Sequence record: PP449093.1
Direction: 5' to 3' (one strand)
Source: Escherichia coli phage phiS
DNA: 64,000 nt
Shown: positions 27,637-63,766 of the stretch, one piece after another
Layout of the letters: the number at the start of each line of letters is the position of its first letter
How positions within the stretch are numbered: the first letter of the stretch is position 1
Notes under the pieces: generated by a model
Told to the model about the DNA's origin: nothing
Database searches by the model: none
The model's input: the letters and a program-made list of their open reading frames with translations, nothing else
Translations under genes and position numbers: made by a program

Positions 27637-27697
27637 GTGTTGACAGCACAAACCAGATAGACAATAATACACACATACCAACTAAGGAGAATCAATT

Positions 27698-28453
27698 ATG
27701 AAACTGTTTGCTTTTAAATCTAACGAAGAATTGGCGCTGGTTGTTTTCCGGCTGAACTCTATCATGGCTGGTGCTTCACGTCGCAACAAAGACTTCTCTA
27801 TGAGCTTAGTCACTGTGCGTAACATTTACCGACAGACTCATTGCGCCTATTCCGGTGAGGCTTTCGGTGAAGGTGATGATGGACTCTCCTTAGAGCGCAT
27901 TGATTGCAATCTGGGATATGTTGATGGCAATGTAATTCCGGTTAAACTGAAATACAATTCTTTCCGTGGCAATCACACTATCGAATCTCTTAAAGAGATC
28001 CAGGAACTAGGAACTAACGGTAAACTTTCTGATGATGAAATTGCCCTACGTGCGAAGTACATCGAGTGGATCGAACTTAACGAGAATCGCATCAAAAATC
28101 AGGAAATGGCAATCGAAGAAAAGAAATTAGCAATCGAGCGCCACAAAAAGCACAACGAACCGGAGAAAGCAGAGGCAGCCGAGCGAGCGATTAAAAATAC
28201 TCTCTTCCGTATGGAAGAACGTTATCAGAAAATTGCCGATCTCAAGCAAGCCCTTAGCGAAATCAACAAGAAAGAAGAAAAACTTAAGGCTATTGCAAAC
28301 AATACCGAAATCGTGCTAAAATATACCAGCGTTTTGATTGAATCTCTTTCTAAGTATGAGAACTTAACGCCAGCACAAAAAGAACGCGTGAAATACGGGA
28401 TTCCGATTGATGCGTCGTGGATTGAATTGATGAAAGCGAAGGTAGGTTTATAA
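27698..28453 (+). CDS. HNH-motif protein with C-terminal coiled coil (251 aa)
   Basis: CAYSGEAF...LSLERID...GYVDGNVIPV...NSFRGN (HNH-like); the C-terminal half is K/E-rich and helical. Confidence 0.55.
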   Translation: MKLFAFKSNEELALVVFRLNSIMAGASRRNKDFSMSLVTVRNIYRQTHCAYSGEAFGEGDDGLSLERIDCNLGYVDGNVIPVKLKYNSFRGNHTIESLKEIQELGTNGKLSDDEIALRAKYIEWIELNENRIKNQEMAIEEKKLAIERHKKHNEPEKAEAAERAIKNTLFRMEERYQKIADLKQALSEINKKEEKLKAIANNTEIVLKYTSVLIESLSKYENLTPAQKERVKYGIPIDASWIELMKAKVGL

Positions 28454-59371: not shown

Positions 59372-60052
59372 ATGATCAGAAACCGTCTTCCTCCAGATCC
59401 AGATATGCGAATTAATGCTAAATCTGTGTATATGTTATATTGCATGATGAAAGCTCATATGAACGGGCGTTATGATTGCGTAAAATATAATTGGAGGATG
59501 CGGTTATCTGATGCCGCATTCAATAAACGCAGAGATAAGTATTATTTCGCGAAATTAGCGGAAAAATACAATCTAAGAGAATTATACTTTCTATTCCTAA
59601 GCAATCTGGTAGCCAATACCGATGCATGGGTAGGTGAAATCACTGATGTTGACGCATACGGCTTTTATATGGAATACATAGGAAAGATAACCGATGCAGC
59701 AACACGATTTGACGATGACATTAAAAGTCTGGTATACTTCTCCGAGAAACGCGGGGTTACTCTTAAAGAGCTAATTACATACAATCCCGCAACCGAAACT
59801 AGCGGTATCTTTAAACTACTGCAAAATCGGATTATATCGTTTGAGTCGTTTATGTTGTTAGATAGCTTTCTAAATATAATCGACGAACACGACAAGGTAG
59901 CCAAAGACTTGATTTGGCAAACTTATAGTGTTAAAATGAAGGCGTACAAGAAACTACTTGTTATTGACGCCGCAAAAGCAAGAGCATTATTTGTTAAAGT
60001 AGTTAAAGAGTGTAAAGAAATATCTCAATTAAAAGCCGAAACAAATAGTTGA
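59372..60052 (+). CDS. 59: Helicase loader gp59
   Basis: KSVYMLYCMMKAHMNGRYDCVKYNW, FLSNLVANTDAW and ISFESFMLLDSFLNIIDEHD match T4 gp59 as I recall it. Confidence 0.9.
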   Translation: MIRNRLPPDPDMRINAKSVYMLYCMMKAHMNGRYDCVKYNWRMRLSDAAFNKRRDKYYFAKLAEKYNLRELYFLFLSNLVANTDAWVGEITDVDAYGFYMEYIGKITDAATRFDDDIKSLVYFSEKRGVTLKELITYNPATETSGIFKLLQNRIISFESFMLLDSFLNIIDEHDKVAKDLIWQTYSVKMKAYKKLLVIDAAKARALFVKVVKECKEISQLKAETNS

Positions 60053-60076
60053 CAAGTAAACTTAAATCTGTATAAT
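60049..60076 (+). promoter_or_regulatory. Promoter upstream of gene 32 (TTGACA, 16 nt, TATAAT)
   Basis: Overlaps the gene 59 stop; an AT-rich unstructured leader follows. Confidence 0.45.
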
Positions 60077-60118
60077 AGTCTAGCAAATTAATAGTTAATG
60101 TATAAAAGAGGTATAATT

Positions 60119-61066
60119 ATGAACATTTTTCGTCGTCAAGATTCTTCCAAACTGCAAGCTCAACTGGCAGCACTGAAAGGTAGCAACGGCTTCTCCAAAG
60201 AAGATCCGAAAGAGTGGAAGATTAAGACTGATGCAGCAGGTAACGGTGAAGCCCTGATTCGCTTCCTGCCGTCTAAGACAGAAGACGGTCTGCCGATTGT
60301 GAAACTGGTAAACCATTCCTTCAAAGTTAATGGCAAATGGTATTGGGAAAACTGCTCCAGCACCCACGGTGATTTTGATTCTTGCCCTGTGTGCAAATAT
60401 ATTAACGAAAAAGATCTGTACAATACCGATAAAACAGAATGGCAACTGATTAAGCGTAAAGCCTCTTACTACGCAAATATTCTGGTACTGAAAGATCCTC
60501 AAGCACCAGAAAATGAAGGTAATGTATTCAAATTCCGCTTCGGTCAGAAAATTTATGATAAGATCGTTGCAATGGTGAACGTGAATACCGACATGGGCGA
60601 AGTTCCGGTAGATGTAACTTGTGTGTTCTCCGGTGCTAACTTCCTCCTGAAAGCTAAGAAGGTTGATAAACACCAGAACTATGATGATTCTCGTTTCATG
60701 CAGCAATCACAGCTTCCGAAAATTGAAGACGAAGCATATCAGAAATATCTGATGGAAAACATGGTTGACCTGAGTGAGATTGTAGCGCCTAGCCAGTTTA
60801 AACCGTTCGATGAACTGGAAACCAAATTTAAGAAAACTATGGGCGTTTCTATGGTAGCTGGTGCTGCGGCTTCCAGTGCTGCGGCAGCGATTAACAGCCA
60901 GCTTGACGATTTTGACGCACAGATGAATGCATTCGATTCTGGTATAACCGCAGCTAGCACGGCGTTAGATTCTTCCGCTGATGACCTGATGGCATCTCTG
61001 GACCTGGGTGGCGGTACTTCCTCCGCTTCTGATCTGGATGATCTTGACGCTCTGTTAGGGATGTAA
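60119..61066 (+). CDS. 32: Single-stranded DNA-binding protein gp32
   Basis: IRFLPSK, KWYWENCSSTHGDFDSCPVCKYI, NILVLKDPQAPENEGNVFKFRFG and acidic C-terminus DLDDLDALL match T4 gp32 as I recall it. Confidence 0.95.
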   Translation: MNIFRRQDSSKLQAQLAALKGSNGFSKEDPKEWKIKTDAAGNGEALIRFLPSKTEDGLPIVKLVNHSFKVNGKWYWENCSSTHGDFDSCPVCKYINEKDLYNTDKTEWQLIKRKASYYANILVLKDPQAPENEGNVFKFRFGQKIYDKIVAMVNVNTDMGEVPVDVTCVFSGANFLLKAKKVDKHQNYDDSRFMQQSQLPKIEDEAYQKYLMENMVDLSEIVAPSQFKPFDELETKFKKTMGVSMVAGAAASSAAAAINSQLDDFDAQMNAFDSGITAASTALDSSADDLMASLDLGGGTSSASDLDDLDALLGM

Positions 61067-61076
61067 TGAATTTTAA

Positions 61077-61104
61077 AGCCTTCCTTCGGGGAGGCTTTTT
61101 TATT
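61077..61104 (+). terminator. Intrinsic terminator after gene 32
   Basis: agccttcc-TTCG-gggaggct hairpin (UUCG loop) followed by TTTTTATT. Confidence 0.65.
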
Positions 61105-61128
61105 GCCTAAAATTTTATGAAAAAGGTG

Positions 61129-61156
61129 TTGACATGCTGATGTTAGGATGTATAAT
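61129..61156 (+). promoter_or_regulatory. Early promoter (TTGACA, 16 nt, TATAAT) with CATCGAAACAAAGGAGGA leader
   Basis: Near-identical cassette to the one at 62420. Confidence 0.5.
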
Positions 61157-61186
61157 ACAAACATCGAAACAAAGGAGGATAAAAAT

Positions 61187-62431
61187 ATGAAAACTTACTT
61201 TGCAAAAGATGTTTGTTATATTATCAAAAATAAATCCGTCTCAAAAACACCAGAACATTACGAGAATCTCTCAATAAGTTATGCATTGTCTCATGGTTTC
61301 GTTTATTTGGGGTTTATTGGAGAATATTCTGGATGCCAAACCCTGTCAAATTTTGAATGTAAAAGACATGGAACGTTTGCGGTCAGAGTAAAAAATCTAA
61401 ATCATGCTAAACATGGTTGCCCAAACTGTGCCCTTGAGAATAGGGCAGAAAAAAGAAAATTGAGTATAGAAAAGATTTATAACGACATAAATCGAATCTG
61501 TGATGAGAACGGAACCATAGAATTAACAGAAATTAAAGGTGGGTATAAAACAACAAAAACACGAAATTTATTTTTTAAATGTAAATTGTGTAATGGCATG
61601 TTTAATACATCACATGATCATTTAAAACGAGGTCAAGCATGTCCAAAATGTCGGTATAAAAAAATTTCTGTGTGTAATACTAGAAACCAACTTGATATTG
61701 AACTTGACATAAAAATAGAATGTAAAAAAAGAAAAACCGTTGAATTTGTAGAATTTGAAAATGGATATTGCAGATACAAGTCAAAAAATTTAATAATGAG
61801 ATGTTTGCGTGGACACGGAAATTACACAACAACAGCAAACGACTTTTTTAAGGGATGTGGTTGTCCTACATGCGGAGGAACGAAAAGACTAACAGAAAAA
61901 CAAGCATCTGAACAAATGATAAAAGAGTGTGAAATTAGAGGTTATGATTTTTTGGGATTTTTTAATGGGTATAAAAAGTCGGCAGAACCTAATGCAAAAT
62001 TAAAATGTAAACGCAGCGGGGTAAGTTTTTATACATCACACAACAATTTTATGAAAGGACAAAACTGTAAGTGTTGCTCTGAATTTGGATATAGAACAAC
62101 GAAATCTGGTGTTTTCTATGTACAGAAACTGTTAGAAAATAATATTTTTTGTGGTGTTAAATTTGGTGTAACCAATAGAACAACAAAAGAACGAATTGGA
62201 GGTCAATCTCGCCTTTCCAAATTCGACCACGAGATCTTTTATGAACTTACTTTACAAGACGGTCAAAAGATCTTAGACTTAGAGAACAAGATCAAGGAAG
62301 CGATGAAAGGTAAAACTTCCTATATCTCAAAAGAAGATATGCCGGATGGCTACACAGAGACAGTAGCACCGTCCGAATTGAGCACTATCATGTATATCGT
62401 AAAATCTTTTGAAAAAGAGTTGACAAAGTAA
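61187..62431 (+). CDS. Zinc-finger-repeat protein with C-terminal GIY-YIG / T5orf172-like motif; putative free-standing homing endonuclease
   Basis: Repeated CxxC modules (GCPNCA, CKLCNG, ACPKC, GCPTCGG) and C-terminal GVFYVQKLLENNIFCGVKFGVTNRTTKER. Inserted between 32 and frd. Confidence 0.55.
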   Translation: MKTYFAKDVCYIIKNKSVSKTPEHYENLSISYALSHGFVYLGFIGEYSGCQTLSNFECKRHGTFAVRVKNLNHAKHGCPNCALENRAEKRKLSIEKIYNDINRICDENGTIELTEIKGGYKTTKTRNLFFKCKLCNGMFNTSHDHLKRGQACPKCRYKKISVCNTRNQLDIELDIKIECKKRKTVEFVEFENGYCRYKSKNLIMRCLRGHGNYTTTANDFFKGCGCPTCGGTKRLTEKQASEQMIKECEIRGYDFLGFFNGYKKSAEPNAKLKCKRSGVSFYTSHNNFMKGQNCKCCSEFGYRTTKSGVFYVQKLLENNIFCGVKFGVTNRTTKERIGGQSRLSKFDHEIFYELTLQDGQKILDLENKIKEAMKGKTSYISKEDMPDGYTETVAPSELSTIMYIVKSFEKELTK

Positions 62432-62447
62432 CATAGTATTGTATAAT
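62420..62447 (+). promoter_or_regulatory. Early promoter (TTGACA, 16 nt, TATAAT) with CATCGAAACAAAGTGAGGA leader
   Basis: Lies within the 3' end of the preceding gene; paralogous to 61129. Confidence 0.5.
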
Positions 62448-62478
62448 ACGAACATCGAAACAAAGTGAGGATTACATT

Positions 62479-62808
62479 ATGTGGACTGTAGAACAAGAAG
62501 TTAACGGATCAATCGAAATTCTGTCTTGTGGTACTATTGAGGAATGTCTTAATACAGCCAACCGCAATTGTATTACAATTTATGAGTCTCGTCGCGGTGA
62601 TGGTAGTTTAATTCAAAGTGATTATCGTTACACTGCCGATAAAATTATCTTTCGTTTCTGGGAAAATGGTGTTAACGTTGGTGTCAGCCTACTGAAAAAG
62701 TATCGTGACTATTCAGAACGCTATTATGTTTGCCCTGATGATGGCACAGTGTTTAAAACAGAGATTAACGAAGAAAACGTTAACGAAAACTACCTTAAAA
62801 TGGTCTGA
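62479..62808 (+). CDS. Hypothetical protein (109 aa)
   Basis: ORF from the track. Confidence 0.5.
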   Translation: MWTVEQEVNGSIEILSCGTIEECLNTANRNCITIYESRRGDGSLIQSDYRYTADKIIFRFWENGVNVGVSLLKKYRDYSERYYVCPDDGTVFKTEINEENVNENYLKMV

Positions 62809-62821
62809 TAGGAGATATATT

Positions 62822-63403
62822 ATGATTCAATGTGTATTTGCGATTGGTGACACTAAAATGTCGGATGAAAATTGGGCGTTTGGTTTTAAAGGCGGCTTAC
62901 CGTGGGGTCGTCCAATCAAAAAGGATATGGAAAACTTTAAAATGCGCACTATGGGAGATGTTGATCTTGCGGCGGTGGTAATGGGACGTAATACCTTTGA
63001 AAGTCTCCCTAAAGCACTGGAAGGTCGTGTGAATGTGGTTGTTAGCACCGATACCAGTAAGCCAGCACCGAAAGCAAAAAACGGCGACCAACCAGATGTG
63101 TATACCGCGATTACTAATGATGGTGGATTGAAGGAATTATTAGAAGTCATAGAGAAATTGCAAGGTTTGGTAAGCGTTATTGGTGGACCTTCCCTGATTG
63201 AAAAAGCAGTTGACTTTGCGGACCGTATTGTGTTAACGTATGTTCAACGTTCAGGGATCAACGATCCATTTGAATATGATGTTGGTATATCTAAGGAAAT
63301 GATTCAGGAATTGTATTTTGACTTTGTAACCAAAGAAGAACATAATTACTTCCTTGATAATTACCTGATCAGCGAACAAATTTTAGAACGTAAGAAGGCG
63401 TAA
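62822..63403 (+). CDS. frd: Dihydrofolate reductase
   Basis: AFGFKGGLPWGRPIKKDMENFKMRT, VVMGRNTFESLP and VIGGPSL are DHFR hallmarks. Start moved to ATG 62822. Confidence 0.85.
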   Translation: MIQCVFAIGDTKMSDENWAFGFKGGLPWGRPIKKDMENFKMRTMGDVDLAAVVMGRNTFESLPKALEGRVNVVVSTDTSKPAPKAKNGDQPDVYTAITNDGGLKELLEVIEKLQGLVSVIGGPSLIEKAVDFADRIVLTYVQRSGINDPFEYDVGISKEMIQELYFDFVTKEEHNYFLDNYLISEQILERKKA

Positions 63404-63404
63404 C

Positions 63405-63497
63405 ATGAAAATTCTGACAGATTATGAGTGCAAACATTGTGGTGAATCTTTGATGTTTGCTGGTAGTCGGTGCTTACATTGCGGACGGGAGCAATAA
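63405..63497 (+). CDS. Small zinc-ribbon peptide (30 aa)
   Basis: My own translation: MKILTDYECKHCGESLMFAGSRCLHCGREQ. Confidence 0.3.
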   Translation: MKILTDYECKHCGESLMFAGSRCLHCGREQ

Positions 63498-63766
63498 TGA
63501 AAGTCGGTATTATTCAATTATGGACGGCTACCAGTGAAAACTACGCAGTAGCCGTAGATTATTACGGGTTACAATATCTCTATGATGAAGCTAAAGCGTC
63601 ATGGCTTCCAGTACAGGAAAATAGCGACATTTCAAGACCTGTTACTGTATTCGATCCTGGAGTTGTCTTTATCGATATTGACGAGACAGTAGCAAAACTG
63701 CGTAAGAAAGCAATCAACAAGAAAAAGGTGATGTGGGATGAAAGAATATTTGAAACTGTTGCGTGA
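63497..63766 (+). CDS. Hypothetical protein (89 aa)
   Basis: ATGA overlap with the upstream stop; start moved from the track's 63470. Confidence 0.45.
   Translation: MKVGIIQLWTATSENYAVAVDYYGLQYLYDEAKASWLPVQENSDISRPVTVFDPGVVFIDIDETVAKLRKKAINKKKVMWDERIFETVA

Follow-up and report, generated by a model that had tools for sequence, protein, structure and literature searches.

The window analysed here is the whole 64,000-nucleotide (nt) stretch of Escherichia coli phage phiS (PP449093.1), an RB49-like T4-type phage of the genus Krischvirus, and our subject is a nuclease-like open reading frame (ORF) situated between gene 32 and frd, together with the two promoter-leader cassettes that bracket it. 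The ORF (61187..62431, + strand; ATG at 61187, stop codon at 62429-62431) is the ortholog of kaaroe_205 and shares its slot with ORF240 of RB49 and ORF240 of phi1. An earlier examination of the letters alone, hereafter the sequence-only reading, had placed a protein of 415 amino acids (aa) between the repeats; the ORF is indeed bracketed by them, and its product is 414 aa long. On its upstream side, gene 32 (60119-61066, + strand; stop codon 61064-61066) is followed by a hairpin (61075..61098, + strand) in which a terminator scan finds 10 pairs and then a T run. This hairpin dominates the fold of 61060-61230 (z = -4.8), supplies the left promoter cassette with its stem-loop, and is where the Rfam matches fall, all of them sub-threshold. 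On the downstream side the right cassette serves frd.x (62479..62808, + strand), which encodes 109 aa of unknown function (PHROG 16287) and precedes frd (62822-63403, + strand), with td next on the same strand.

The region 60100-63500 matches 63 phage records, the closest of which is Escherichia phage kaaroe with 92.9% identity over 3.4 kb. The guanine-plus-cytosine (GC) content is 0.31 in the body of the nuclease-like gene (61187-62150) compared with 0.445 in gene 32, and a tblastn search with the ORF found no paralogue in the 64-kb window. The sequence-only reading had used T4 as its point of reference, noting that gene 32 and frd are closer together there. The interval does measure 1,258 nt in T4 as compared to 1,755 nt in phiS, and yet the comparison is inapt, as the T4 interval holds frd.1, frd.2 and frd.3, while segG of T4 lies on the opposite side of gene 32.

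Two promoter-leader cassettes form direct repeats

The left cassette (61118..61186, + strand) carries TGAAAAAG at 61118-61125, a -35 hexamer at 61129-61134, a -10 hexamer at 61151-61156, a core at 61149-61174 and the Shine-Dalgarno sequence GGAGGA at 61174-61179. The right cassette (62410..62478, + strand) repeats this order, with TGAAAAAG at 62410-62417, the -35 at 62420-62425, the -10 at 62442-62447, the core at 62440-62465 and GAGGA at 62467-62471, and the nuclease gene runs into it with its final 7 codons and its stop. Both read TTGACA-N16-TATAAT, matching all 12 positions of the sigma-70 consensus hexamers across a 16-nt spacer, and in both the Shine-Dalgarno sequence lies 7 nt 5' of an ATG (61187 and 62479, respectively). 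The 30 nt 5' of each -35 have a GC content of 0.23.

The repeated core begins 2 nt 5' of the -10 and is identical at 25 of 26 positions (61149-61174 versus 62440-62465). When the 26-mer was sought with up to 3 mismatches, just these two sites were found in the 64 kb, whereas shuffled sequences gave an expectation of 0. Allowing one 1-nt gap extends the match to 29/31 and carries it through the Shine-Dalgarno sequence. Similarity resumes 5' of the -35 as TGAAAAAG(G/A).GTTGACA, giving a unit of ~69 nt (61118-61186 and 62410-62478) in which 55 of 73 aligned columns are identical; the two 16-nt spacers show no relationship (5/16 identical). The cassettes had previously been called near-identical, with a G/T substitution just before GAGGA. 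The near identity holds for the core, and the difference in question is a 1-nt insertion or deletion.

As a measure of how far this resemblance exceeds that among promoters in general, the window contains 31 near-consensus sigma-70 matches (at most 1 mismatch over both hexamers), which make 465 pairs. The left and right cassettes are the most similar pair (27/36; mean 13, standard deviation 2.8), in agreement with the prediction that they resemble each other more than they resemble other promoters, though the promoter at 1463 comes nearly as close (26/36). All 31 promoters are on the + strand and 0 are on the - strand. A cassette of the same family is present at 1463 (1425-1522), where TTGACA-N16-TATAATgctcACATCGAAAACAACGAGAGGAcaacATG is preceded by a hairpin 5' of the promoter, and another at 27640-27720, so the two cassettes at the nuclease gene are members of a small family rather than a unique pair.

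An RNA hairpin pairing 61157-61165 with 61208-61216 would enclose the nuclease gene's Shine-Dalgarno sequence and its ATG. We set it aside as probably due to chance, because its left arm differs in kaaroe though the ORF is the same; most of that arm is moreover 5' of where transcription is expected to start.

The slot is empty, occupied, decayed or replaced in related phages

We compared the same interval in eleven Krischvirus phages. In JSE and FL20 the slot is empty, and one cassette lies between gene 32 and frd.x, the frd.x start lying ~126 nt past the end of gene 32. These phages lack the gene and a single cassette separates its neighbours, which supports the earlier claim that the nuclease gene of phiS is an insertion. 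The single cassette joins a left-type upstream region and spacer (tgct.atgtggtaa) to a right-type Shine-Dalgarno region (caaagagaggattatatt; caaagagaggattatattATG), and the junction falls in the shared core. Judged by its sequence, this chimera is what recombination between the two cassettes would be expected to produce, which bears out the suggestion that the direct repeats could mediate gain or loss of the gene.

Where the slot is filled, its content varies. The nuclease gene of kaaroe is the same as that of phiS, and the nucleases in the slot measure 485 aa in RB49, 460 in phi1 and FL38, 541 in JEP8, 392 in Skers, 486 in Whisky and 414 in phiS. At least six very different nuclease alleles thus occupy the slot within identical borders. 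Their zinc-finger parts are 27-41% identical among phiS/kaaroe, RB49, phi1/FL38, JEP8 and Skers, or 27-49% when Whisky and a fragment from MIZ4 are included, whereas the last 75 aa are 92-99% identical among the alleles of phiS/kaaroe, RB49, phi1/FL38, JEP8 and Skers. The ORF240 genes of RB49 and phi1 are accordingly different alleles, with zinc-finger parts that are 34% identical and a final 75 aa that are 96% identical; this zinc-finger divergence far exceeds what the genome-wide average of 95.8% identity (PMC2839356) would give.

In MIZ4 the slot gene is broken (1369-2220 of the compared MIZ4 interval) into two N-terminal fragments and a 185-aa ORF. The fragments are 27 and 36 aa long when trimmed to their homologous part, the 185-aa ORF retains one zinc finger and the nuclease domain, and eight short clusters (115-196 aa) resembling it exist in the protein database. 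In kvi the slot holds an unrelated ORF of 109 aa, which matches no family and is followed by the right cassette including its spacer. Since the borders in kvi are identical, they are independent of the phiS-type nuclease. All told, eight phages besides JSE and FL20 differ in content between the same cassette borders. Among the 40 records listed of the 63 matching, the slot-spanning stretch falls into several size classes between ~2.07 and 3.77 kb, lengths from which we infer that the slot is widely polymorphic among these records.

Mosaic borders and a shared 3' block

Identity to phiS among the ten relatives is 95-98% just 5' of the left cassette (61064-61123) and 76-100% in the bin containing most of that cassette (61124-61183), and it falls to 30-60% from the nuclease ATG onwards (61184-62083). 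It recovers to 86-100% at ~62145-62200 in RB49, JEP8, FL38 and Skers, and at ~62330-62380 in MIZ4 and Whisky. Alleles that are otherwise unrelated therefore have a 3' block in common (62200..62431, + strand; 86-100% identity to RB49, JEP8, FL38 and Skers), in which RNA structure was not significant (z = -1.9). On these alignments, the right-hand homology arm would consist of the last ~50-330 nt of coding sequence plus the 59-nt cassette, with breakpoints that vary by allele.

In the comparison of phiS with kaaroe, nucleotide identity is 97.8% in gene 32, 86% in the left cassette region, 98.5% in the ORF, 78% in the right cassette, 69% in frd.x and 91% in frd, a pattern in which the cassettes appear as exchange points. 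In a comparison of low power, with only two empty alleles, we found no polymorphism in gene 32 or frd.x that tracks slot occupancy, the 3' end of gene 32 being 95-100% identical in all compared phages. Nor do the haplotypes of frd.x follow the nuclease allele. Separately, frd.x is strongly polymorphic in otherwise similar Krischvirus phages, with at least four haplotypes, and is itself a mosaic segment.

A zinc-finger array joined to a predicted GIY-YIG-superfamily domain

The product of the ORF is 97.8% identical in aa sequence to its kaaroe homolog and matches PHROG 681 'endonuclease' (E = 8.5e-71). Its N-terminal part consists of four tandem CapR-type zinc-finger modules of ~66 aa each (61247..62086, + strand; aa 21-86, 93-158, 166-232 and 235-300), recognised by Pfam PF21817 CapR in four stretches (E = 8.1e-11; 42.4 bits against a cut-off of 24.2), while DUF4379 scored slightly under its cut-off (21.8 versus 24.5 bits). 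From the positions of Cys and His residues, the likely ligands are C58/H61 with C78/C81 in module 1, C132/C135 with C152/C155 in module 2, C206/H210 with C226/C229 in module 3, and C274 with C294/C297 in module 4, whose first knuckle is degenerate. The modules would be expected to bind DNA. The model of the full-length protein combines a predicted local distance difference test (pLDDT) of 88.9 with a predicted template modelling score (pTM) of 0.42, values suggesting that the modules fold independently and that their mutual arrangement is not fixed. As the full-length model has no fixed domain arrangement, it is to be expected that a Foldseek search with it against the PDB returned nothing under E = 0.1.

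The zinc-finger array also matches PHROG 559 'HNH endonuclease' (aa 37-321, 61297-62149; E = 2.7e-22), a match to the zinc-finger part only. Some database relatives (P0043, P0045) carry another C-terminal domain that is not alignable with the GIY-YIG-like domain of phiS, indicating that one DNA-binding array is combined with different C-terminal domains.

The C-terminal domain (62087..62428, + strand) is predicted to belong to the GIY-YIG superfamily, near T5orf172 and MUG113. Its predicted fold has the beta-beta-alpha-beta-alpha-alpha core of GIY-YIG domains, and its fold matches in BFVD are phage proteins annotated as CapR-homology, GIY-YIG, homing endonuclease and T5 Orf172, the last with E = 2.2e-6. 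A profile of the domain retrieved 1,347 proteins at E <= 0.001, and in a sample of 80 relatives from this search, all with E <= about 5e-16, 34 matched MUG113 (PF13455) and 15 matched T5orf172 (PF10544). Y311, K325-F326-G327, R336, H348, E366, K370, D387-G388 and T390-E391-T392 are invariant across the family alignments. Y311, R336 and E391 are located in the secondary-structure elements expected for the catalytic Tyr, the catalytic Arg and the metal-binding Glu of GIY-YIG enzymes. R336 and E391 likely correspond to the Arg and Glu of the active site in those enzymes. The protein is a putative nuclease or homing endonuclease.

Neither Pfam nor NCBIfam yielded a direct match to T5orf172, MUG113 or GIY-YIG, whether the query was the entire protein, its final 117 aa or T5p137. 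In the PDB, sequence matches to the protein and to the domain profile did not rise above chance level, and when the C-terminal domain by itself served as the query, only close, mostly truncated relatives were recovered. Zinc modules followed by a GIY-YIG/T5orf172-like C-terminus had been proposed by the sequence-only reading; four CapR modules and a predicted fold uphold that architecture, whereas the hidden Markov model search gave no direct Pfam match to T5orf172 or GIY-YIG.

Neighbouring genes

Gene 59 (59372-60052, + strand) precedes gene 32, and the gap between them, which is the position of segG in T4, contains no gene in phiS (60053-60118). In kvi the same gap holds a 198-aa HNH endonuclease (PHROG 99, E = 1.5e-50; 862-1458 of the compared interval), and in Skers, MIZ4 and FL20 a 597-nt ORF (at 1-258 of the compared intervals), whose annotation reads HNH endonuclease in Skers and MIZ4 but hypothetical protein in FL20. 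The nuclease genes in this gap of the relatives point to mobile nuclease slots on both sides of gene 32. Between frd and the next ORF, a mini-ORF of 30 aa with a CxxC...CxxC pattern (MKILTDYECKHCGESLMFAGSRCLHCGREQ) is found at 63406-63498; the records of RB49, FL38, Skers and FL20 include it as an annotated gene, those of kaaroe, JSE and kvi do not.

Discussion

Based on these comparisons we think it probable that gene 32 and frd.x enclose a variable gene slot whose mobility depends on recombination between cassettes of the PeSL type, with a homing-endonuclease-like gene as its cargo in phiS. In RB49 and phi1, PeSLs (promoter-early stem-loops) are found on either side of variable ORFs and combine an early promoter with a stem-loop in one cassette (Arbiol 2010, PMC2839356). 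Their promoter and terminator activity was shown experimentally, and when tandem copies recombine the ORF is lost as a mini-circle (PMC2839356); they were later extended to further T4-like phages (Comeau 2014, PMC4122927). The cassettes of phiS come from the same phage group and share with PeSLs the sigma-70 consensus early promoter, the AT-rich upstream region, the Shine-Dalgarno sequence and start codon at the 3' end, the tandem arrangement around a variable gene and the single chimeric cassette of relatives without that gene, and the left copy alone also has a GC-rich stem-loop upstream of the -35. The cargo differs, being a nuclease gene in phiS and an orphan ORF of unknown function in PeSLs, and so does the setting, as the phiS slot is in the conserved replication module. 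The gene 32-frd slot was not found in the main text of PMC2839356 or PMC4122927, nor was ORF240 in the main text of PMC2839356. The RB49/phi1 pair founded the PeSL concept.

The mechanism that we propose runs as follows. The nuclease gene would be expressed early from its own consensus sigma-70 promoter and strong Shine-Dalgarno sequence, right after the terminator of gene 32, and the second cassette would resupply an early promoter and ribosome-binding site to frd.x and frd. Since the right cassette re-equips these two genes, the insertion should not silence them. Homologous recombination in the shared core (TGTATAATAC.AACATCGAAACAAAG) would remove the gene, with a single chimeric cassette remaining, and in the reverse reaction a circle with one cassette would integrate and thereby insert the gene. 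Allele exchange would use the left cassette as one arm and the conserved 3' end of the gene with the right cassette as the other, and an exchange between these arms would swap the zinc-finger array. The cassettes are presumed here to act as promoters, and the direction of events and the recombination pathway are likewise what we consider plausible given the alleles.

Several observations weigh against this explanation. The right copy is not a complete PeSL: it overlaps the end of the coding sequence and has no stem-loop, as none was detected in it, the terminator scan gave no site and the fold of 62240-62480 reached only z = -1.9. The repeated core is merely 26-31 nt long and similar leaders exist elsewhere in the window, so that the resemblance may in part reflect function and not common descent. 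The chimera in JSE and FL20 could equally be an ancestral state, from which an insertion event then duplicated the cassette, the data fitting insertion and deletion alike. Breakpoints inside the nuclease domain mean that the cassettes are not the sole points of exchange. As for the cargo, neither T5orf172 (PF10544) nor GIY-YIG (PF01541) in Pfam matched the protein directly, even at E <= 10.

The leaders at 1463 (26/36 to the left cassette) and 27640 (25/36), together with the unrelated spacers of the two cassettes (5/16), would also be accommodated if strong early promoters and leaders simply approach one optimal sequence and the cassettes have no special role in recombination. We find this very unlikely, as the cassette of the empty alleles is an exact chimera of left and right with its join in the shared core, the mosaic borders coincide with the cassettes, the homology 5' of the -35 (TGAAAAAG) reaches into what became coding sequence, and mini-circles between such cassettes were demonstrated in RB49/phi1 (PMC2839356). 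Classical homing deserves more attention, even if we rate it below even chances by some way. Here the nuclease would cut the empty allele, or the adjacent gene 32 or frd.x, of a co-infecting phage, the gene would be copied in by double-strand-break repair, and the cassettes would be a by-product. The nuclease fold with its invariant Arg and Glu candidates, the presence/absence polymorphism at a fixed locus beside an essential gene with a decayed copy in MIZ4, the low GC of the gene body (0.31) and the other homing-endonuclease genes beside gene 32 in T4 and several Krischvirus phages all speak for it, and the variable breakpoints in the flanking homology resemble co-conversion tracts. Yet the non-nuclease ORF of kvi has the same cassette borders, which argues that these are generic joints, and no target site can be deduced. 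The 3' end of gene 32 is 95-100% identical whatever the slot contains. Expression of the seg and mob genes of T4 is tightly limited, unlike that expected from the consensus early promoter and strong Shine-Dalgarno sequence of the phiS gene.

That same promoter and Shine-Dalgarno sequence would suit a gene that is no longer selfish and serves the phage as a weapon against competing phages, satellites or host DNA, like Odn, or as a DNA-binding regulator, like CapR. Precedents exist for the weapon (PMC8263062) and for the regulator (PMC8096241), and such extreme diversity of zinc-finger arrays in a single slot (27-49% identity) would be in keeping with an arms race for target specificity. Such domestication appears unlikely to us nonetheless: the gene is dispensable, with empty, broken and replaced alleles in otherwise similar phages, the PADLOC defence library contained no match to it, and the retention of the nuclease motifs is at odds with a pure repressor. 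The slot with PeSL-type recombination remains our preferred explanation, and within it the polymorphism, the decayed MIZ4 copy and the low GC would fit a cargo that is a homing gene.

The cargo itself has known relatives. CapR is a zinc-finger DNA-binding protein whose cysteines are required and which is related to the N-terminal regions of T5orf172-containing putative homing endonucleases (Netter 2021, PMC8096241). Genes of the T5orf172 type usually carry repeated CapR/DUF723/DUF4379 fingers, adjoin essential genes and exchange domains, and T4 itself has none (Barth 2023, PMC10448857). Like the T5orf172/CapR proteins of ICP1 (Gp53/121/130/165/174) and of T5-like phages, the phiS protein has N-terminal CapR repeats resembling beads on a string, a C-terminal domain predicted to belong to the GIY-YIG superfamily, an essential gene as its neighbour, and evidence that domains and alleles are swapped; the T5 gene T5p137, annotated as similar to RB49p240, encodes a homolog. 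It differs from them in being encoded by a T4-type phage and in that its C-terminal domain falls under the Pfam models for T5orf172 and MUG113, to which it is linked via intermediate relatives and the fold.

I-TevI and the Seg proteins begin with their catalytic domain and have the DNA-binding domain at the C-terminus. The domain order is thus reversed in phiS, where moreover PF01541 found no match and the DNA-binding part is a zinc-finger array. The phiS protein resembles Odn (ICP1 Gp88) in coupling a nuclease domain, predicted in phiS to be T5orf172-like, to an exchangeable DNA-binding module, and in its candidate equivalents of the conserved Arg and Glu; Odn differs in having a borrowed RepA_N domain and a satellite replication origin as its target. 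The T5orf172 domain of Odn cleaves DNA, and the E180A mutant loses cleavage (Barth 2021, PMC8263062).

The locus is therefore a clear example of two published kinds, PeSL cassettes and CapR plus T5orf172 nucleases, and not a new kind of element. The combination of a ~230-nt shared 3' end with hypervariable zinc-finger arrays is a modest addition beyond the main texts of the papers on PeSLs and on T5orf172/CapR proteins. One further idea, which we offer as a speculation with the balance well against it, is that the slot is a natural locus for swapping nuclease specificity, in which standing homology arms would let zinc-finger arrays be exchanged among co-infecting RB49-like phages and thereby retarget an early-expressed nuclease used in competition. 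If this is true, the locus would be more than an ordinary selfish homing gene.

The gene 32-frd.x interval brings together two published ideas, that promoter cassettes serve as recombination linkers in T4-type phages and that zinc-finger/T5orf172 nucleases are modular and swap domains. The series of alleles in the Krischvirus phages (empty, at least six nucleases, decayed, and an unrelated ORF) offers a ready test system for distinguishing nuclease-driven homing from plain recombination, and it is equally suited to asking whether the exchange of zinc-finger arrays retargets the nuclease.

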